A stretch of DNA of 64,000 nucleotides from Escherichia coli O127:H6 str. E2348/69 (GTDB lineage Bacteria > Pseudomonadota > Gammaproteobacteria > Enterobacterales > Enterobacteriaceae), in NCBI RefSeq assembly GCF_000026545.1, contig NC_011601.1; one strand, 5' to 3'. The first letter of the stretch is position 1. Every line of letters begins with the position of its first letter. Of the stretch, positions 9,250 to 64,000 are shown one piece after another. A program made the translations under genes and the position numbers. The notes beneath the pieces were generated by a model. That model searched no databases and had not been told where the DNA came from. It worked only from the letters and a program-made list of their open reading frames with translations.

Positions 9250-12200
9250 TTACACCTTTTCCACATTCACAAGGAAGGACTTAAACTCCGGCGTCTGCGT
9301 GTTCGCATCACCGACGAATGGCGTCAACGTATTGGCAATAAAGCCTTTTTTCGCAACACCTTCATAGCCCCAGTGAATCGGAATACCGATGGTATCGATA
9401 TCTTTGCCGTTTGCTTTCAGCGTGCGAATACGTTTGGTCACTACCGCTTTGGCTTTGATATAGCCACGGTTGGAGGAGACTTTCACAGTATCGCCCTGGG
9501 CAATGCCAAGTTTATTCGCCAGCGACTCCCCGATTTCCACAAACTGCTCTGGTTGCAAAATCGCATTCAACAGCGCGTGTTTGGTCCAGTAGTGGAAGTG
9601 CTCGGTCAGACGATAGGTGGTTCCGACATACGGGAACTTATCGGCTTTACCCAATGCTTCGGCGTCGTCTTTAAAGATACGCGCAGCCGGGTTCGAGATA
9701 ACGTTTGGATGCAGCGGGTTAGTTCCCAGCGGCGTTTCAAACGGCTCGTAGTGTTCCGGGAACGGACCTTCCGCCATCTTATCGAGGGCAAACAGACGTC
9801 CCATGCCTTCCTGCTGCATGATAAACGGCCCTACGCCGCTGCCCGGAGGCGCTGCGCTGTAGTCCGGAATATCCCAGCCGGTCCACTTAGTGCCGTCCCA
9901 TTTCAGCAACTGACGCTTCGGATCCCATGGGTTACCCTGCGGATCTGCGGAGGCGCGGTTATACAGAATGCGGCGGTTTAGCGGCCATGCCCATGCCCAG
10001 CCCAGCGTGTTACCGAGGCCAGACGGATCGGCGTTATCACGACGCGCCATCTGGTTGCCTTCCGGCGTCCAGCTACCGGCGAAAATCCAGCAGCCACAGG
10101 AGGTTGTACCGTCATCGCGCAGTTGGGCGAACGAGCTAAGTTGTTGGCCTTTCTTGACGATAACCGCACCGGTTGCCGGGTCGGTAATATCGGCCAGCGC
10201 TTTGCCGTTGCTCTCCATTGCCACTTCTTCTGAAGATGGCTCATGCGGAATGGCGTAGTTCCAGGTCATGTTCAGCACCTGGTCCGGGTTCGCGCCACCC
10301 TGTTCGGCATACATCTTGCGCAAGCGCAGGAAGATACCGGAGAGGATCTCGCCATCAGTCAGCGCAATCCCCGGGGCGTCCGCACCTTTCCAGTGCCACT
10401 GTAACCAGCGACCTGAGTTAACGATAGAACCGTTCTCTTCCGCGAAGCAGGTCGATGGTAGACGGAACACTTCGGTCTGGATCTTCGACGAGTCAACTTC
10501 GTTCAGCTCACCGTGGTTCTGCCAGAAGTTAGAGGTTTCAGTGTTCAGCGGGTCGATAGTCACGAGGAATTTCAGCTTCGACAGACAGCCGATCACTTTG
10601 TTTTTGTTCGGGAATGAGGCAACAGGGTTAAAGCCCTGGCAGATATAGCCATTGACCTTGCCTTCTTTCATCATCTCGAAGTATTGCAGGACGTCGTAGC
10701 CTTTATCCCACTTCGGCAACCAGTCAAAGCCCCAGCTATTTTCCGCCGTCGCTTTATCACCAAAGAAGGCCTTCATCATAGAGACGAAGAATTTCGGGTA
10801 GTTGCCCCAGTAGTTTACCTGGCCTTCCAGCAGCGGTTTTGGCGTGTTGGCGGTAAGGTAGGTTTGCAGATCGGTCTGCTTCTCGCTTGGCAGCGTCATG
10901 TAACCTGGCAGGCTCTGCGACAGCAGCCCCAGGTCGGTCAGCCCCTGAATATTGGAGTGACCGCGCAGGGCGTTAACGCCGCCGCCAGCCATCCCCATAT
11001 TGCCGAGCAGCAACTGGATCATCGCCATCGTACGGATGTTCTGCGCACCGATGGAGTGTTGCGTCCAGCCGAGCGCGTAAAGGAACGAGGCAGTTTTATC
11101 GTGAGCACTGGTTTCGGCGATGTATTCGCAGACTTTCAGGAATGCGTCTTTTGGCGTACCACAGATGTTTTCAACCACATCTGGCGTGTAGCGGGAAACG
11201 TGCTGTTTCAGCAAGTTCCACACGCAACGTGGATGTTGCAGGGTAGTATCGCGTTTGGCGAAGCCGTTTTCGTCCAGTTCGTAAGTCCAGGTGGACTTAT
11301 CGTACTTGCGTTTTTCCGCGTCGTAGCCGGTGAACAGGCCATCTTCAAAGCCGTAATCCTCACGCACGATCAGGCTAGCGTTGGTATAGGCTTCGGTGTA
11401 TTCGCGGTTGAATTTTTCATTGTTCAGCAGGTACAGCAATACGCCTGACAGGAAAGCAATGTCAGTACCGGAACGGATAGGGGCATAGTAGTCAGCCACC
11501 GCCGCTGTACGTGTAAAGCGAGGATCGATCACAATCAGCTTCGCGCCGTTGTGAATTTTGGCTTCCATCGCCCAGCGGAACCCGACCGGGTGAGCTTCAG
11601 CGGCGTTACCGCCCATCACCACGACGAGGTTGGCATTCTTGATGTCGACCCAGTGGTTGGTCATCGCACCGCGACCAAATGTTGGAGCAAGACTTGCTAC
11701 CGTTGGTCCGTGTCAGACACGCGCCTGGTTGTCGACCGCGAGCATACCCAGCGCGCGGGAGAATTTTTGCGTTAAATAGCCGGTTTCGTTACTCGACGCG
11801 GAAGCACACAGCATCCCGGTGGAGAGCCAGCGGTTAACAGTCACGCCTTCGGCGTTTTGCGCAATGTAGTTCGCATCGCGGTCTTCTTTCATCAGTTTGG
11901 CGATGCGATCAAACGCCTCTTCCCAACTGATTTGCTGCCATTTATCAGAACCTGGCGCACGGTATTCCGGAAACTTCAGGCGGCTTTCGGAGTGGATGAA
12001 ATCCACCAGGCCAGCGCCTTTCGGACAAAGTGCTCCGCGGTTGACCGGGTGATCCGGGTCACCTTCGATATGGAAGATAGATGCTTTGGCGTTTTTTGCT
12101 CCGTCACCGAGGCTGTACATCAACAGCCCACAGCCTACGGAACAATAGGTGCAGGTATTACGGGTTTCGCGGGTGCGCAGCAGTTTATACTGCCGGGTTT

Positions 12201-12300
12201 CCGCGAGTGCTACGCTGGGTGCAAAACCCAGTGCCGCTGCCGTGGTGCCTGCCATACCGCCAGCGCAGATCTTAAAGAACTGCCTTCTGCTGACCTGCAT
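9250..12300 (-). CDS. fdoG: formate dehydrogenase-O major subunit, selenoprotein (in-frame UGA = Sec at 11713..11715)
   Basis: track ORFs 11713..12300 (195 aa, Tat signal SRRQFFK) and 9250..11664 (804 aa) are in one frame separated only by TGA; joined length is 1016 aa. Confidence 0.92.
11668..11712 (-). other. SECIS-like hairpin immediately 3' of the fdoG UGA
   Basis: mRNA reads UGA-CACGGACCAACGGUAGCAAGUCUUGCUCC..., a stem with an AGUC-type apical loop resembling the fdhF SECIS. Confidence 0.6.
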
Positions 12301-12493
12301 GGATTGCTCCTTGTTTCGACATTGTCACGTCCCATTTACATTCGCTTGCTGCGTGTGCAGGGAGTGGGAGTTATTTTTCTTTGCGGAAGGGGCCGCAAAG
12401 GTCCAGAATTGGCTCAATTTCCCTCCATCCAGGAAGGGTTTGTAACAGAATACCATAATGTTGGTGTGTGTGTTCTTATCTGGTTAATAGAAA

Positions 12494-13330
12494 GTGAAAA
12501 AAACACAGCAAAAAGAAATCGAGAATGTGACAAATATCACAGGTGTTCGTCAAATTGAGTTATGGCGGCGTGATGATTTACAACACCCACGGTTAGATGA
12601 GGTGGCGGAAGAAGTTCCCGTTGCGCTGGTCTACAACGGCATTTCGCATGTGGTGATGATGGCGTCGCCCAAAGACCTTGAGTACTTTGCGCTCGGTTTT
12701 TCGCTTTCCGAAGGAATTATCGAAAGCCCGCGCGATATCTTCGGCATGGATGTCGTTCCTTCCTGTAATGGCCTGGAAGTACAAATTGAGCTTTCCAGCC
12801 GCCGCTTTATGGGGTTGAAGGAACGCCGCCGGGCGCTGGCGGGACGTACGGGCTGTGGCGTATGCGGTGTAGAACAGCTTAACGATATCGGTAAACCGGT
12901 GCAGCCGCTGCCGTTCACCCAGACGTTTGATCTCAACAAACTGGATGATGCATTACGTCATCTCAATGATTTCCAGCCAGTGGGGCAACTGACTGGTTGT
13001 ACTCACGCCGCTGCATGGATGTTGCCATCTGGCGAACTGGTCGGCGGGCATGAAGACGTGGGTCGCCATGTGGCGCTGGACAAACTGTTAGGCCGCCGGT
13101 CACAAGAAGGGGAAAGCTGGCAGCAAGGTGCGGTGCTGGTTTCCAGCCGTGCCAGTTATGAAATGGTGCAAAAGTCGGCGATGTGCGGCGTAGAGATTTT
13201 GTTTGCGGTGTCTGCCGCGACCACACTTGCTGTAGAAGTGGCTGAGCGCTGTAATCTGACGCTGGTGGGCTTTTGTAAACCGGGTCGGGCAACGGTTTAT
13301 ACCCATCCGCAGCGTTTGGTTCATAATTAA
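12494..13330 (+). CDS. fdhD: formate dehydrogenase sulfurtransferase FdhD
   Basis: 278-aa ORF from a GTG start, divergent from fdoG. Confidence 0.9.
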
Positions 13331-25699: not shown

Positions 25700-25845
25700 A
25701 TGTACGATCTGTAGGCCGGATAAGGCACTCGTGCCGCATCCGGCATTTGAGCAGGATGCCTGATGCGACGCTGTCGCGTCTTATCAGGCCTACAACTATT
25801 GCCGACCCGTAGGCCGGATAAGGCACTTGTGCCGCATCCGGCAGT
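25700..25845. repeat. BIME: three REP palindromic units between rhaA and rhaD
   Basis: GTAGGCCGGATAAGGC...GCCGCATCCGGCA twice and GCCTGATGCGACGCTGTCGCGTCTTATCAGGCCTAC once. Confidence 0.85.
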
Positions 25846-34632: not shown

Positions 34633-34716
34633 GTAGGCCTGATAAGACGCTATCAGCGTCGCATCAGGCATCCTGCTCAAATGCCGGATGCGGCGTAAAC
34701 GCCTTATCCTGCCTAC
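34633..34716. repeat. REP palindromic units (two) between yiiM and cpxA
   Basis: GTAGGCCTGATAAGACGC...GCATCAGGCA and ATGCCGGATGCGGCGTAAACGCCTTATCCTGCCTAC. Confidence 0.85.
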
Positions 34717-39694: not shown

Positions 39695-39793
39695 GGCCTG
39701 ATGCGCTTCGCTTATCAGGCCTACATGAATTCTGTAATCTATTGAATTTGCAAACTTTTGTAGGCCGGATAAGGCGTTTGTGCCGCATCCGGC
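39695..39793. repeat. REP palindromic units after pfkA
   Basis: GCCTGATGCGCTTCGCTTATCAGGCCTAC and GTAGGCCGGATAAGGCGTTTGTGCCGCATCCGGCA. Confidence 0.85.
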
Positions 39794-52917: not shown

Positions 52918-53448
52918 TTACGCTTTGTAGCTTAATTCTTCGATGGTGTGGAAATGGTTGGTATAGATGCAAATGTCGCCTGCAATATCCAACGCCTTTT
53001 CAGCAATTTCACGGGCGCTAAGTTCAGTGTTTTCTAACAGCGCGCGCGCCGCAGCCTGGGCGTAAGGGCCGCCAGAGCCGATAGCAATAAGATCGTTTTC
53101 TGGCTGCACCACGTCACCGTTACCGGTGATGATAAGCGATGCAGTTTCATCCGCGACTGCCAGCAGTGCTTCAAGTTTGCGCAGCATGCGATCGGTACGC
53201 CAGTCTTTCGCCAGCTCAACGGCGGCTTTGACCAGATGGCCCTGATGCATTTCCAGTTTACGTTCAAACAGTTCGAACAGCGTAAAAGCATCCGCAGTAC
53301 CGCCCGCAAAGCCCGCGATGACTTTGTCGTTGTACAGACGGCGGACCTTTTTCACGTTGCCTTTCATTACGGTATTGCCCAACGTGGCCTGACCATCACC
53401 AGCGATGACCACATGGCCGTTACGGCGTACGCTTACTATAGTTGTCAC
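52918..53448 (-). CDS. hslV: ATP-dependent protease subunit HslV
   Basis: 176 aa, [20 protein letters not shown]. Confidence 0.95.
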
Positions 53449-53516
53449 GAGCTGACCCCTTGGTTACGAATACAGAGTACAAACCCCGTACAAAAGTACG
53501 GGGCATAATGCAATTA

Positions 53517-54516: not shown

Positions 54517-55542
54517 TTAAGGTAACGCGCGTGTTGATCCCCGGATGATAAGTTCGCAGTCCATTAAACGAGAGCCACTGCCAACGTGTTGCCCCTGCAT
54601 TTGATCAAGCAATAACAGCATAGCTTCCCGACCGATTTCGTAACGCGGCTGCGCGATGGTTGTCAGCGGCGGATCACAAAATTGCGTCAGGTCGATGTTA
54701 TCAAAACCGATTATGGAAAGGTCTTCCGGTACTTTCAGCCCCTGGCGTTTTGCCTGCGAAAGTGCGCCGAGCGCCATCACATCGCTATGGCAGAAGACAG
54801 CAGTAGGCGGTTGTGGAAGATCAAGCAGCTGTTGCATTGCTTTGCTTCCGGCTTCGAAGGTGAAGTCGCCACGGGCGATGTATTGCGGATCAACCATAAT
54901 GCCGCAGCGACGCAGCGCCTGAACGTAGCCTTGCAGGCGGTAGTGACACAGCGGCATCTCTTCGGGACCGGCTATACAGCCAATCCGTTTATGCCCTTGC
55001 TCATATAAATAATTTACTGCATCAAATGCGGCGGTCAGATTGTCGATATGAACTGTAGGCAGCTCCAGTTCCGGTGCAAATTCGTTCGCCATCACCATCG
55101 GCGGCAGATTACGCTGTTCCTCAATGCTGGCATCAAACGGCAGCCTTGAACCCAGCAGCAACATGCCATCAATTTGCTTGGTGATGATCAAATCGATAAA
55201 GGTTTTTTCCTGCTGATTTTGATGCGCACAGTCGCCAATCAGCACCAGATATCCGTGATTTGCCGCCGTAACTTCGATACCGCGAATAATTTCGCTAAAG
55301 AAAGGGTCGCAGATATCCGGGACAATCACCAGAATAGTGCGGGATTCATTACGCTTGACGTTGCGCCCCATAGGCTGTGGTAAATAACCCACTTCCCGGG
55401 CCGCTTTTTCAACCCGATTACGAGTGGTCTGGGAGACTTTATCGGGATTCATTAATGCTCGGGAGACGGTCGCTGTAGAGACTTTTGCCTTGAGGGCAAC
55501 GTCTTTCATGGTCGCGGCAGTTTCCTGCTTCTTCGCTTTCAC
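54517..55542 (-). CDS. cytR: LacI-family repressor CytR
   Basis: 341 aa from a GTG start (MKAKKQETAATMKDVALKAKVS). Confidence 0.9.
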   Translation of the reverse strand: MKAKKQETAATMKDVALKAKVSTATVSRALMNPDKVSQTTRNRVEKAAREVGYLPQPMGRNVKRNESRTILVIVPDICDPFFSEIIRGIEVTAANHGYLVLIGDCAHQNQQEKTFIDLIITKQIDGMLLLGSRLPFDASIEEQRNLPPMVMANEFAPELELPTVHIDNLTAAFDAVNYLYEQGHKRIGCIAGPEEMPLCHYRLQGYVQALRRCGIMVDPQYIARGDFTFEAGSKAMQQLLDLPQPPTAVFCHSDVMALGALSQAKRQGLKVPEDLSIIGFDNIDLTQFCDPPLTTIAQPRYEIGREAMLLLLDQMQGQHVGSGSRLMDCELIIRGSTRALP

Positions 55543-55697: not shown

Positions 55698-58055
<2,358 letters not shown>

Positions 58056-58059
58056 TTAG

Positions 58060-58311
<252 letters not shown>

Positions 58312-60796: not shown

Positions 60797-63229
60797 ATGA
60801 GTGTGATTGCGCAGGCAGGGGCGAAAGGTCGTCAACTGCATAAATTTGGTGGCAGTAGTCTGGCTGATGTGAAGTGTTATTTGCGTGTCGCGGGCATTAT
60901 GGCGGAGTACTCTCAGCCTGACGATATGATGGTGGTTTCCGCCGCCGGTAGCACCACTAACCAGTTGATTAACTGGTTGAAACTAAGCCAGACCGATCGT
61001 CTCTCTGCGCATCAGGTTCAACAAACATTACGTCGTTATCAGTGCGATCTGATTAGCGGCCTGCTACCCGCCGAAGAAGCCGATAACCTCATTAGCGCTT
61101 TTGTCAGCGATCTTGAGCGCCTGGCGGCGTTGCTCGACAGCGGTATTAACGATGCGGTGTATGCGGAAGTGGTGGGCCACGGTGAAGTGTGGTCGGCGCG
61201 CCTGATGTCTGCGGTGCTTAATCAACAAGGGCTGCCATCGGCCTGGCTTGATGCCCGCGAGTTTTTACGCGCTGAACGCGCTGCGCAACCGCAGGTTGAT
61301 GAAGGGCTTTCGTACCCGTTGCTGCAACAGCTACTGGTACAACATCCGGGCAAACGTCTGGTGGTGACCGGGTTTATCAGCCGTAACAACGCCGGTGAAA
61401 CGGTGCTGCTTGGGCGTAACGGTTCCGACTATTCCGCGACACAAATCGGTGCGCTGGCGGGTGTTTCTCGCGTAACCATCTGGAGTGACGTCGCCGGGGT
61501 ATATAGCGCCGACCCGCGTAAAGTGAAAGATGCCTGCCTGCTGCCGTTGCTGCGTCTGGATGAAGCCAGCGAACTGGCGCGTCTGGCGGCTCCCGTTCTT
61601 CATGCCCGTACTTTACAGCCCGTTTCTGGCAGCGAAATCGACCTGCAACTGCGCTGTAGCTACACGCCGGATCAAGGTTCCACGCGCATTGAACGCGTGC
61701 TGGCCTCCGGTACTGGTGCGCGTATTGTCACCAGCCATGATGATGTCTGCTTGATTGAGTTTCAGGTGCCCGCCAGCCAGGATTTCAAACTGGCGCATAA
61801 AGAGATCGACCAGATCCTGAAACGTGCTCAGGTGCGCCCACTGGCGGTTGGCGTGCATAACGATCGCCAGTTGCTGCAATTTTGCTACACCTCAGAAGTG
61901 GCCGACAGTGCGCTGAAAATCCTCGACGAAGCGGGATTACCTGGCGAACTGCGCCTGCGTCAGGGGCTGGCGCTGGTGGCGATGGTTGGGGCGGGCGTCA
62001 CCCGTAACCCGCTGCATTGCCACCGCTTCTGGCAGCAACTGAAAGGCCAGCCGGTCGAGTTTACCTGGCAGTCTGATGATGGCATCAGCCTGGTGGCAGT
62101 ACTGCGCACCGGCCCGACCGAAAGCCTGATTCAGGGGCTGCATCAGTCCGTCTTCCGCGCGGAAAAACGCATCGGCCTGGTATTGTTCGGTAAGGGCAAT
62201 ATCGGTTCCCGCTGGCTGGAACTGTTCGCCCGTGAGCAGAGTACGCTTTCGGCACGTACCGGCTTTGAATTTGTGCTGGCAGGCGTGGTGGACAGCCGCC
62301 GCAGCCTGTTGAGCTATGACGGGCTGGACGCCAGCCGCGCGTTAGCCTTCTTCAACGATGAAGCGGTCGAGCAGGATGAAGAGTCGCTGTTCCTGTGGAT
62401 GCGCGCCCACCCGTATGATGATTTAGTGGTGCTGGACGTTACCGCCAGCCAGCAGCTCGCTGACCAGTATCTTGATTTCGCCAGCCACGGTTTCCACGTC
62501 ATCAGTGCCAACAAACTGGCAGGAGCGAGCGACAGCAATAAATATCGCCAGATCCACGACGCCTTCGAAAAAACCGGGCGTCACTGGCTGTACAATGCCA
62601 CTGTCGGTGCGGGTTTGCCGATCAACCATACCGTGCGCGATCTGATCGACAGCGGCGATACCATTTTGTCGATCAGTGGGATCTTCTCTGGCACGCTCTC
62701 CTGGCTGTTCCTGCAATTCGACGGTAGCGTGCCGTTTACCGAACTGGTGGATCAGGCGTGGCAGCAGGGCTTAACCGAGCCTGACCCGCGTGATGACCTT
62801 TCCGGCAAAGACGTGATGCGCAAGCTGGTGATTCTGGCGCGTGAAGCGGGTTACAACATTGAACCGGACCAGGTACGTGTTGAATCACTGGTACCTGCCC
62901 ATTGCGAAGGCGGCAGCATCGACCATTTCTTTGAAAATGGCGATGAACTTAACGAGCAGATGGTGCAACGACTGGAAGCGGCCCGCGAAATGGGGCTGGT
63001 GCTGCGCTACGTGGCGCGTTTCGATGCCAATGGCAAAGCGCGTGTGGGCGTGGAAGCGGTGCGTGAAGACCATCCGCTGGCATCACTACTGCCATGCGAT
63101 AACGTCTTTGCCATCGAAAGCCGCTGGTATCGCGACAACCCGCTGGTGATCCGCGGGCCAGGTGCAGGGCGCGACGTCACCGCCGGGGCGATTCAGTCGG
63201 ATATCAACCGGCTGGCGCAGTTGTTGTAG
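60797..63229 (+). CDS. metL: bifunctional aspartokinase II / homoserine dehydrogenase II
   Basis: 810 aa, 3 bp after the metB stop. Confidence 0.95.
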   Translation: MSVIAQAGAKGRQLHKFGGSSLADVKCYLRVAGIMAEYSQPDDMMVVSAAGSTTNQLINWLKLSQTDRLSAHQVQQTLRRYQCDLISGLLPAEEADNLISAFVSDLERLAALLDSGINDAVYAEVVGHGEVWSARLMSAVLNQQGLPSAWLDAREFLRAERAAQPQVDEGLSYPLLQQLLVQHPGKRLVVTGFISRNNAGETVLLGRNGSDYSATQIGALAGVSRVTIWSDVAGVYSADPRKVKDACLLPLLRLDEASELARLAAPVLHARTLQPVSGSEIDLQLRCSYTPDQGSTRIERVLASGTGARIVTSHDDVCLIEFQVPASQDFKLAHKEIDQILKRAQVRPLAVGVHNDRQLLQFCYTSEVADSALKILDEAGLPGELRLRQGLALVAMVGAGVTRNPLHCHRFWQQLKGQPVEFTWQSDDGISLVAVLRTGPTESLIQGLHQSVFRAEKRIGLVLFGKGNIGSRWLELFAREQSTLSARTGFEFVLAGVVDSRRSLLSYDGLDASRALAFFNDEAVEQDEESLFLWMRAHPYDDLVVLDVTASQQLADQYLDFASHGFHVISANKLAGASDSNKYRQIHDAFEKTGRHWLYNATVGAGLPINHTVRDLIDSGDTILSISGIFSGTLSWLFLQFDGSVPFTELVDQAWQQGLTEPDPRDDLSGKDVMRKLVILAREAGYNIEPDQVRVESLVPAHCEGGSIDHFFENGDELNEQMVQRLEAAREMGLVLRYVARFDANGKARVGVEAVREDHPLASLLPCDNVFAIESRWYRDNPLVIRGPGAGRDVTAGAIQSDINRLAQLL

Positions 63230-63241
63230 TGATTATTGAAC

Positions 63242-63268
63242 AAAAGCTGGCAGTTGCCAGCTTTTGTT
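63242..63268 (+). terminator. metL rho-independent terminator
   Basis: AAAA-GCTGGCA-gtt-GCCAGC-TTTTGTTGT. Confidence 0.85.
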
Positions 63269-63330
63269 GTCACCCCTAAACCTCTTCCTGGGGAAGTGGT
63301 GATTGATTGTCATTTTGCCTTTGGTCAGTG

Positions 63331-63358
63331 CCCCCGGTAATAAGGGGGCTTTTGTGTT
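63331..63358 (+). terminator. second hairpin plus T-run downstream of metL
   Basis: CCCCC-ggtaataa-GGGGG followed by CTTTTGTGTT. Confidence 0.5.
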
Positions 63359-63446
63359 GAGCGATGAAGTAACAGAGTGAATGGTGAAGTTATTAATGAC
63401 AATTACAAAATGACATTAAGTAACAATATCTAAAATGTCACCTAAT

Positions 63447-64000
63447 TTAAAATTGATAACCAATAGTAGTATAGGTTCCCCATCCTGTATTTTTTAATTC
63501 AAATGGACCATCTCCGAAGTTAACCTTCTCTCCCGCATTCCATTGTCCACCGTTGTGAAAATAACGTAGTGTAAATGCAAATTTCCAGTGTTCATATAGA
63601 AGGGAAAGGATATGGCTTGAAGCAATAGCATTACTGGTTCGTTTATTATTGTGTGACTTGTCCGCAAGATCGGAGCCAAAATCAAAGTTAGTAAAACTAT
63701 TGTATACCAATCGTCCTCCGAATAAATTTGTAAGAGGGATGCTATATTTTATTTTGAATCGATATCCGTCCCATTCATTTTCATTAGCGGCACCATAGTT
63801 TTGCCACTGATACTTGGCGTATATATTGGCAGAAAGCTTAATTGGTAGACCCGTGTCGATATCTGTACCAAGCCCCATATACCATGTACTTTGCCGGGAT
63901 GACTGGTTGTCACCCATATCATAGACATAGTTGTTTGCAATGAACCATTCTTTAAATGGGCCGAACGCAAGATTTAATCCGGTCAATTTGTCAATGGAAA
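63447..64000 (-). CDS. Tsx-family nucleoside-specific outer-membrane channel paralog (partial; 5' end lies beyond the window)
   Basis: C-terminal ~180 aa align closely to E. coli Tsx (FGPFKEW..ANNY.YDMG...[18 protein letters not shown]...[26 protein letters not shown]...GWG.Y...GY.F); the reading frame continues open to position 64000 (..SIDKL..). Confidence 0.8.

Follow-up and report, generated by a model that had tools for sequence, protein, structure and literature searches.

A second Tsx-type channel gene linked to exported nucleotidases between metL and metF of Escherichia coli

The end of a 64,000-nucleotide stretch of the Escherichia coli O127:H6 str. E2348/69 chromosome (NC_011601.1; "the window" below means this whole stretch) encodes part of a second Tsx-family channel, here called Tsx2, whose gene follows directly on metL. 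The Tsx protein of E. coli K-12 is a nucleoside-specific outer-membrane channel and the receptor of phage T6 and colicin K. We consider it likely that Tsx2 is an intact, expressed and selectively maintained nucleoside channel that has been co-opted into a periplasmic nucleotide-scavenging module, chiefly because tsx-like genes are repeatedly linked to genes for exported nucleotidases in different architectures. The gene, the island that carries it and the functional proposal are already known, since the gene is annotated in RefSeq and both the island and the proposal are in print (PMC12928451), and current understanding is not overturned. Added here are the prediction of retained transport with lost T6 reception, the finding that divergence is not loop-specific, the three states of the metL-metF junction, and a genomic-context hypothesis for a zinc-ribbon protein.

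The tsx2 gene and its product

63447..64000, minus strand: 3′ part of tsx2, codons 104-286 and the stop (from the translation, the full gene in strain CFT073 and the identity to K-12 Tsx)

The minus-strand frame is open from the window edge (63447..63998) to a TAA stop at 63447-63449 and encodes 183 residues (SIDKLTGL...TIGYQF), while the remaining two minus-strand frames at the window end are broken by many stops. In CFT073 the gene is complete, with 286 codons at 12218-13078 of the CFT073 locus record (L001; window coordinate = L001 + 51229), and is given as 861 bp in the open reading frame (ORF) list of PMC12928451. Its start codon lies 307 bp past the window edge. The portion within the window thus covers residues 104-286 of 286, or 64% of the protein, as the preliminary description had judged when it called the frame the C-terminal two thirds of a Tsx. 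The gene is c4894 or C_RS23130, its product WP_000275563.1, and RefSeq annotates it as "nucleoside-specific channel-forming protein Tsx". BLASTP aligns Tsx2 with K-12 Tsx at 169/262 identities (65%, E = 9e-128), and NCBIfam model NF011686 matches its residues 2-286 with 492.8 bits, far more than the curated cut-off of 311. Pfam family PF03502 (Channel_Tsx) is precomputed for a protein identical to Tsx2 (P0001). Judged by eye, the N-terminus (MYIKKHWIALSILLIPCIGNA/QE) is a Sec signal peptide and the C-terminus (...TIGYQF) has an aromatic end.

The earlier identification of a second Tsx-family gene stands, because neither of the two things that could have undone it was found. Extension past position 64000 recovers a full, intact 286-codon gene in CFT073, and tsx2 is an annotated coding sequence in all listed genomes, which rules out a frameshifted pseudogene. 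Nor is tsx2 standard at the K-12 junction, where 199 unrelated bp stand in its place. The full gene in CFT073 and the two Tsx-like places in sampled carrier genomes show the second gene to be genuine. Two E. coli tsx2 alleles differ at 11 synonymous and 3 non-synonymous codons, none in loops, and E. coli tsx2 and its Citrobacter enshiensis orthologue, whose product is 86% identical, differ at 98 synonymous and 41 non-synonymous codons. Because synonymous changes are in excess, tsx2 is by its codon differences an intact gene under purifying selection. It is also among the genes most induced (3.3 log2) when TosR is over-produced (PMC5956150).

A sequence search of the PDB with Tsx2 returned Tsx as the sole match (1TLW/1TLY/1TLZ, E = 7e-115). 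An AlphaFold2 model built with 51 homologues has a mean predicted local distance difference test score (pLDDT) of 83.5 and 12 main strands; it superposes on 1TLW chains A and B (Tsx with thymidine) with a target-normalised template modelling score of 0.92, a root-mean-square deviation of 1.8-2.0 Å and 61% identity. Tsx2 is therefore predicted to be a 12-stranded monomeric barrel like 1TLY/1TLW. According to PMC6499177 (citing Fsihi 1993; Ye & van den Berg 2004), mutations of Phe27, Gly28, Ser217, Gly239 and Gly240, in mature K-12 Tsx numbering, abolish nucleoside transport. All five residues are unchanged in Tsx2 (F45, G46, S231, G253 and G254), and Tsx2 is predicted to keep nucleoside transport.

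Receptor residues tell a different part of the story. Topology was taken from the AlphaFold2 model, with extracellular loops L1-L6 and five periplasmic turns and the assumption of a periplasmic N-terminus; so modelled, the known phage-receptor residues would lie outside the cell. The same paper (PMC6499177, citing Schneider 1993; Nieweg & Bremer 1997) implicates residues 198-207, Asn249 and Asn254 in T6-type receptor function. Measured against these residues, Tsx2 has a deletion of 202-206 in loop L5 and substitutions at 198, 200 and 207; in loop L6, Asn254 is replaced by Pro268 and Asn249 is kept (N263). Because L5 and L6 are without the T6 receptor determinants, phage T6 is predicted not to use Tsx2 as a receptor, likely as a side effect.

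The preliminary description had read the divergence from Tsx as concentrated in extracellular loops, quoting a residue pair with DMGRNKDGRQ that is indeed present in the Tsx2/K-12 Tsx alignment. Identity by region was as follows.

Tsx2 and K-12 Tsx: strands 68%, turns 72%, loops 59%; loops against the rest (69%), Fisher p = 0.12
K-12 Tsx and Salmonella Tsx: strands 94%, turns 92%, loops 57%; Fisher p = 1e-11

The earlier idea thus fits the T6 receptor determinants, which are changed, and is weakly supported by the overall pattern: divergence restricted to the loops is not significant for Tsx2 (59% in loops, 69% elsewhere), unlike in the K-12/Salmonella orthologue pair. Scoring each region over the longer of the two sequences, which turns the L5 deletion into mismatches, gives a loop identity of 55% for Tsx2 and K-12 Tsx. 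Strands S1, S2, S11 and S12 have diverged as much as loops L3, L5 and L6. Because the divergence is spread over the barrel and not confined to the loops, Tsx2 looks like an old, globally diverged paralogue lineage rather than an orthologue with fast loops. Its identity to each of the other Enterobacterales Tsx proteins is 55-69%; a neighbour-joining analysis with 200 bootstraps placed it as sister to E. coli Tsx in 0/200 replicates and inside the K-12/Salmonella clade in 16%. A recent duplication of E. coli tsx is ruled out by this near-equidistance and is also countered by the bootstraps, in which K-12 Tsx was never sister to Tsx2.

Linkage of tsx2 to nucleotidase genes

63230..64000, unstranded: left end of the 7640-bp metL-metF variable segment (CFT073 c4894-c4898, "GR 31"), with about 6.9 kb beyond the window edge
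L001 16598-17722, minus strand, about 4.3-5.4 kb past the window end: c4897, a 374-amino-acid zinc-ribbon "cytoplasmic protein" (CFT073 annotation)

In CFT073 the gene order is metL; tsx2 (minus); nt1, 539 amino acids (minus); nt2, 516 amino acids (minus); the 374-amino-acid protein (minus); nt3, 517 amino acids (plus); metF. The first gene of the segment after metL is tsx2, and the gaps within nt2-nt1-tsx2 are 40 and 76 bp. Where CFT073 has 7640 bp (L001 12000-19639), K-12 has 199 bp; homology resumes 149 bp before metF, which in K-12 begins 348 bp after metL and is the next gene there, as the preliminary description had expected from K-12 gene order. The segment has 43% G+C against 57% in the metB-metL flank, and tsx2 DNA has 39%. 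No integrase or tRNA was found in the segment, and the longest word common to both of its ends is 8 bp, so that there are no longer terminal repeats than this. We therefore rejected a classical mobile genomic island, for want of integrase, tRNA and flanking direct repeats; transposase-like features of the segment are limited to the 374-amino-acid protein, whose zinc ribbon weakly resembles that of IS1 InsA.

The three nucleotidases carry Sec signal peptides, are 55-64% identical to each other and 26-28% identical to UshA, and keep UshA residues D41, H43, D84, N116, H117, D120, H217, H252, R410, F429 and F498; Q254 is His in them, and R375 and R379 are unmatched in the alignment. Among these UshA residues are the ligands of the dimetal site, the catalytic dyad of His117 and Asp120, and Phe429 and Phe498, which clamp the base in the C-terminal nucleotide-binding domain. 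Against the NCBIfam equivalog models for UshA, NadN and CpdB, nt1, nt2 and nt3 score 99-166 bits, below the cut-offs of 436-600. By sequence, then, all three are exported UshA-like metallophosphatase/5′-nucleotidases that keep the catalytic residues and fall outside the UshA, NadN and CpdB equivalogs. The nt3 protein is identical to PDB entries 3IVD and 3IVE, named "Nucleotidase", which we presume to be structural-genomics complexes with uridine and cytidine; a literature search found no paper on these entries.

The product of c4897 is without a signal peptide, has two Cys4 clusters, and shows no known domain after residue 110. Searches of Pfam, NCBIfam and PHROGs gave only a weak InsA/IS1 zinc-ribbon signal, and a PADLOC search gave no match. 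The family is rare (145 cluster representatives in 1.84 billion), and its AlphaFold2 model (pLDDT 43.5) is confident over no more than residues 60-110, the zinc ribbon. In Enterobacteriaceae the gene always lies divergent from an nt3-type nucleotidase gene and acts as a syntenic host gene in many genera. Distant homologues (25-28% identical) lie in two Aliagarivorans between transaldolase-nupC-add-deoC and genes for a Tsx-like protein and a TatD-family hydrolase, and in Enterovibrio directly after an nt3-like gene. This repeated association is the main evidence that the zinc-ribbon protein takes part in nucleoside/nucleotide scavenging, most simply as a regulator, and we regard it as a likely candidate for a new regulator of that process. 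It was possibly derived from an IS1-like transposase.

A different Tsx lineage is found in a similar setting. This lineage, of 293 amino acids (P0076, P0086), shares 59% identity with Tsx2 and about 60-63% with K-12 Tsx. Its genes lie in nt1-tsx-nt2-(nt2)-nt3 clusters on the nt3 side of the zinc-ribbon gene and divergent from it, elsewhere on the chromosome in Enterobacter hormaechei, E. asburiae, E. vonholyi, Citrobacter sp. wls619 and some Escherichia (loci L009, L020, L021, L038, L040 and L043, of which L020 is a second locus in E. coli SCPM-O-B-8794). The nucleotidases of these clusters are 72-93% identical to those of the B2 island, and the zinc-ribbon family is the same, so that Tsx, at 59%, is the least conserved component of the module. 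A common origin of the nucleotidase-linked Tsx lineages was not recovered in the neighbour-joining trees, where their monophyly had a bootstrap of only 3-46%. On these sequences, Tsx-like genes joined the nucleotidase module in at least two different architectures. That the linkage recurs in different architectures is the main evidence that channel and enzymes work together. Strains with a 293-amino-acid lineage cluster would have up to three Tsx-type channels. A further Tsx paralogue, from an enterobacterial genome (P0004; L005 10001-10849, GCA_002979035.1), is 66% identical to Tsx2 and groups with it in 77% of bootstraps; its gene lies between sprT/endA (endonuclease I) and a major facilitator superfamily (MFS) transporter gene/metK, which is another nucleic-acid-related neighbourhood.

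Distribution and the metL side of the segment

The island occurs in B2-type E. coli such as CFT073 and Nissle 1917. At 100% identity, the final 771 window bases are present in CFT073, Nissle 1917, LF82, NRG 857C, ABU 83972, ATCC 25922 and E2348/69. This stretch occurs in 660 of 5426 complete E. coli genomes (12%), in one copy each and always on the chromosome; at least 80% of tsx2 is covered in 658 genomes, with an annotated coding sequence in every one of the matches shown. A more sensitive blastn search with tsx2 matched 6084 places in 5423 of the 5426 genomes. The 660 genomes whose best match has at least 95% identity are the tsx2 carriers, and those sampled have two places per record, while non-carriers have only a match of about 70%, annotated tsx. 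Because sampled carriers show two Tsx-like places and the total match count fits, the matches are consistent with essentially all carriers keeping canonical tsx, tsx2 being a second copy and not a relocated one. Canonical tsx does map to a distant locus, as the preliminary description had stated (431 kb in K-12, with metL at 4.13 Mb). Across the 5426 genomes the metL-metF junction takes three forms.

Full island (tsx2, nt1, nt2, zinc-ribbon gene, nt3): 660/5426, 12%
Short form (zinc-ribbon gene and nt3 only): about 1180/5426, about 22%
Empty, K-12 type: the rest of 5426, about 66%

Relative to the full form, the short form has one clean gap of 4.6 kb, from the metL stop into the last 37 nt of the zinc-ribbon gene, and in the short form of E. 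coli these two genes overlap at their 3′ ends. In a cross-species scan of the locus with one genome per species, the divergent zinc-ribbon/nt3 pair was found between metL and metF in many Citrobacter, Klebsiella pneumoniae, K. oxytoca, K. spallanzanii, Kosakonia and Phytobacter, and also in Superficieibacter, Pseudocitrobacter, Kluyvera, Salmonella arizonae and Escherichia whittamii; nt3 is 87-98% identical in these species. Because the pair is syntenic between metL and metF in so many genera, it is probably ancestral at this locus, and K-12 probably represents a state of loss. C. enshiensis carries a collinear full island at this locus, with 75-81% nucleotide identity against 85% in the flanking metL and metF. 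Collinearity and an identity comparable to that of the flanks argue for long residence of the island rather than recent transfer. The C. enshiensis island carries an extra 327-amino-acid ORF between tsx2 and metL (L004 11292-12275) with marginal similarity to MFS sugar porters; at this position CFT073 has 217 bp of non-coding DNA with two hairpins. The features on this side of the segment within the window are the following.

60797..63229, plus strand: metL, aspartate kinase / homoserine dehydrogenase II (ORF list, CFT073 annotation)
63239..63268, both strands: perfect 13-bp hairpin with an A-run on one side and a T-run on the other (RNA fold)
63330..63349 (L001 12101-12120), plus strand only: second hairpin, with a G+C-rich 6-bp stem and an 8-nt loop, then TTTTGTGTT (terminator scan)

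The last core gene before the variable segment is metL, and K-12 homology stops exactly at its stop codon: in a blastn comparison, K-12 positions 1-767 match L001 11233-11999 and the alignment then breaks. G+C content drops from 58-59% in metL to 38-42% downstream in the window, so that the AT-rich setting and the two metL-proximal hairpins of the preliminary description were both recovered. The first hairpin folds at -21.1 (plus) and -20.6 (minus) kcal/mol (z = -5.6 and -5.2), with no shuffled sequence as stable, and probably serves as a bidirectional intrinsic terminator for metL on the plus strand and for the convergent nt2-nt1-tsx2 genes on the minus strand. It is part of the island; the K-12 metL 3′ region differs and has an element like a repetitive extragenic palindrome (REP). 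The second hairpin folds at -16.2 kcal/mol with a weak z of -2.3.

An Rfam scan of the island gave no match. In the rest of the window it gave SECIS_3 at 11660-11718 (minus), the REP-derived naRNA4 at 25714-25790 (plus) and 34636-34713 (minus), ES036 at 39717-39758 (minus), a ClpQY (hslVU) promoter element at 53446-53503 (minus) and the L31 leader upstream of rpmE at 58040-58092 (plus). The window also holds cytR at about 54517-55542 (minus), some 8 kb upstream of tsx2. Its product represses canonical tsx and the regulon for nucleoside catabolism. The nearness of cytR to tsx2 is probably coincidental, because K-12 has cytR at the same position.

Proposed function, alternatives and comparison with known systems

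We hypothesize that nt2, nt1 and tsx2 form one minus-strand transcript, as gene order and gaps suggest, with tsx2 last and with its end at the hairpin in common with metL. The three periplasmic nucleotidases would remove phosphate from extracellular nucleotides, and inner-membrane nucleoside transporters would import the resulting nucleosides. At low concentration the Tsx2 barrel would pass nucleosides, and possibly closely related compounds, across the outer membrane, and with the module switched on Tsx2 would let more nucleosides, or more of a related substrate, through this membrane. As the likely regulator we propose the zinc-ribbon protein, and silencing of AT-rich DNA may keep expression low in the laboratory, as the TosR effect suggests.

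Several observations weigh against this reading. The five transport residues, being conserved family-wide, cannot discriminate between nucleoside and altered specificity. Because general porins admit nucleotides to the periplasm, the pathway does not strictly depend on a nucleoside channel. In most species with the zinc-ribbon/nt3 pair a neighbouring Tsx-like gene is absent, which makes Tsx an optional add-on. The logic that couples channel to enzymes is drawn solely from gene linkage, and the operon structure from the short gaps of 40 and 76 bp, while a scan that found fewer sites than in shuffled sequence placed a promoter-like site just upstream of tsx2. Finally, the literature found on the five island genes consists of a transcriptome table and a bioinformatic description, with no transport, enzymatic or genetic experiment.

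Other explanations can be weighed against the same observations. Tsx2 could be kept mainly for escape from phages and colicins, as a backup channel whose surface is invisible to T6-type phages and colicin K, so that canonical tsx could be lost or mutated under attack with nucleoside uptake kept. The altered T6 determinants speak for this (five of residues 198-207 deleted and three substituted, and Asn254 changed to Pro), as do the variability of L5, which is the most variable region both in the comparison of E. coli Tsx2 with that of C. enshiensis (6 of the 29 changes in the mature protein) and across Tsx lineages, and the position of Tsx as the least conserved module component (59% against 72-93%). 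However, the divergence from Tsx is not loop-specific (p = 0.12), and the E. coli alleles are without amino-acid changes in loops and thus give no sign of ongoing diversifying selection. Escape would also leave the tight, repeated linkage to nucleotidases unexplained. We consider it rather unlikely as the main reason why tsx2 is kept, and compatible with co-option into a scavenging module as a side benefit. At the other extreme, tsx2 might be a silent relic, horizontally acquired or decaying and of no current function. Its DNA is AT-rich (39% G+C), its expression has been noted only under over-production of a regulator (PMC5956150), about 66% of E. coli genomes are without the segment and about 22% have lost the tsx2-nt1-nt2 part. 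Such a relic is scarcely credible in view of a frame that is intact at 95% identity or more in about 660 genomes, the excess of synonymous changes, the intact signal peptide and ...GYQF C-terminal signature, and the collinear island in C. enshiensis, whose identity (75-81% against 85% in the flanks) implies long maintenance.

A changed substrate range is the remaining alternative: Tsx2 would admit nucleosides that are phosphorylated or modified in other ways (nucleoside monophosphates, cyclic nucleotides and NAD-like or dinucleotide compounds) to feed the three nucleotidases, and the island would both take up and hydrolyse, as one complete pathway, a substrate kept out by canonical Tsx. In its favour, the channel gene lies amid three paralogous nucleotidase genes that are not orthologues of UshA, CpdB or NadN; strands S1, S2, S11 and S12 differ strongly from those of Tsx; some strand motifs, for example DLYPEY and TLRYF, are common to Tsx2 and the other nucleotidase-linked lineage; and the net charge is -6 in mature Tsx2 against -12 in Tsx, although net charge is a crude proxy. 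Yet the nucleoside-passage residues known from PMC6499177 are unchanged, and monophyly of the nucleotidase-linked Tsx proteins reaches only 3-46% bootstrap, so that we judge a changed range to be decidedly unlikely. A bolder form of the idea, which we offer as a long shot, holds that Tsx2, the three nucleotidases and the zinc-ribbon protein make up a regulated pathway dedicated to a specific extracellular compound of nucleotide type, one that escapes canonical Tsx and UshA, with altered channel specificity and with the zinc-ribbon protein as a new nucleoside/nucleotide-responsive regulator derived from an IS1-like transposase. Its substrates would be, for example, host-derived ATP, AMP or NAD, or cyclic or dinucleotide signals. 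If true, such a pathway in B2 extraintestinal pathogenic E. coli (ExPEC) and adherent-invasive E. coli could generate adenosine and influence host purinergic signalling.

Whichever of these functions applies, Tsx is a classic entry point for phage, colicin and antibiotic, and a second Tsx surface in ExPEC and probiotic B2 strains (CFT073, Nissle 1917, LF82) bears on phage host range and on resistance through receptor loss. A channel gene clustered with genes for three exported nucleotidases points to accessory nucleotide scavenging, which could aid fitness in nucleotide-rich host niches. The zinc-ribbon family, for its part, is small and uncharacterised and comes with a clear genomic-context hypothesis.

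The region was described in a comparison of ExPEC and avian pathogenic E. coli (PMC12928451, PLoS One 2026) as "GR 31 (metL..metF)", which is the same DNA as CFT073 c4894-c4898. That independent study lists ORF 131 (861 bp), 67% identical to Tsx, together with three ORFs that have UshA domains. It proposes that nucleosides are processed and transported by one coordinated system, the same functional guess as ours. Our analysis adds the zinc-ribbon gene, the T6 receptor residues, the three states of the locus, the pair in other genera and PDB 3IVD/3IVE.

K-12 Tsx (b0411; 1TLY/1TLW/1TLZ) belongs to the same Pfam and NCBIfam family as Tsx2 and has the same architecture of signal peptide and C-terminal Phe, and loop L4 (YGAANEN) and strand S6 are identical in the two proteins. 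They differ in that Tsx2 is 8 residues shorter, is less acidic when mature, and is encoded between metL and metF rather than between yajD and yajI, inside a nucleotidase cluster, whereas K-12 tsx stands alone. Periplasmic nucleotide salvage in K-12 is carried out by UshA, CpdB and AphA with Tsx and the transporters NupC/NupG. The island has the same logical parts as this route, with a nucleoside channel in the outer membrane and Sec-exported enzymes of the calcineurin-like metallophosphatase / 5′-nucleotidase superfamily, and its enzymes have the same catalytic residues. In contrast to the scattered parts of the K-12 route, those of the island are clustered, with three nucleotidase paralogues and an uncharacterised zinc-ribbon partner.

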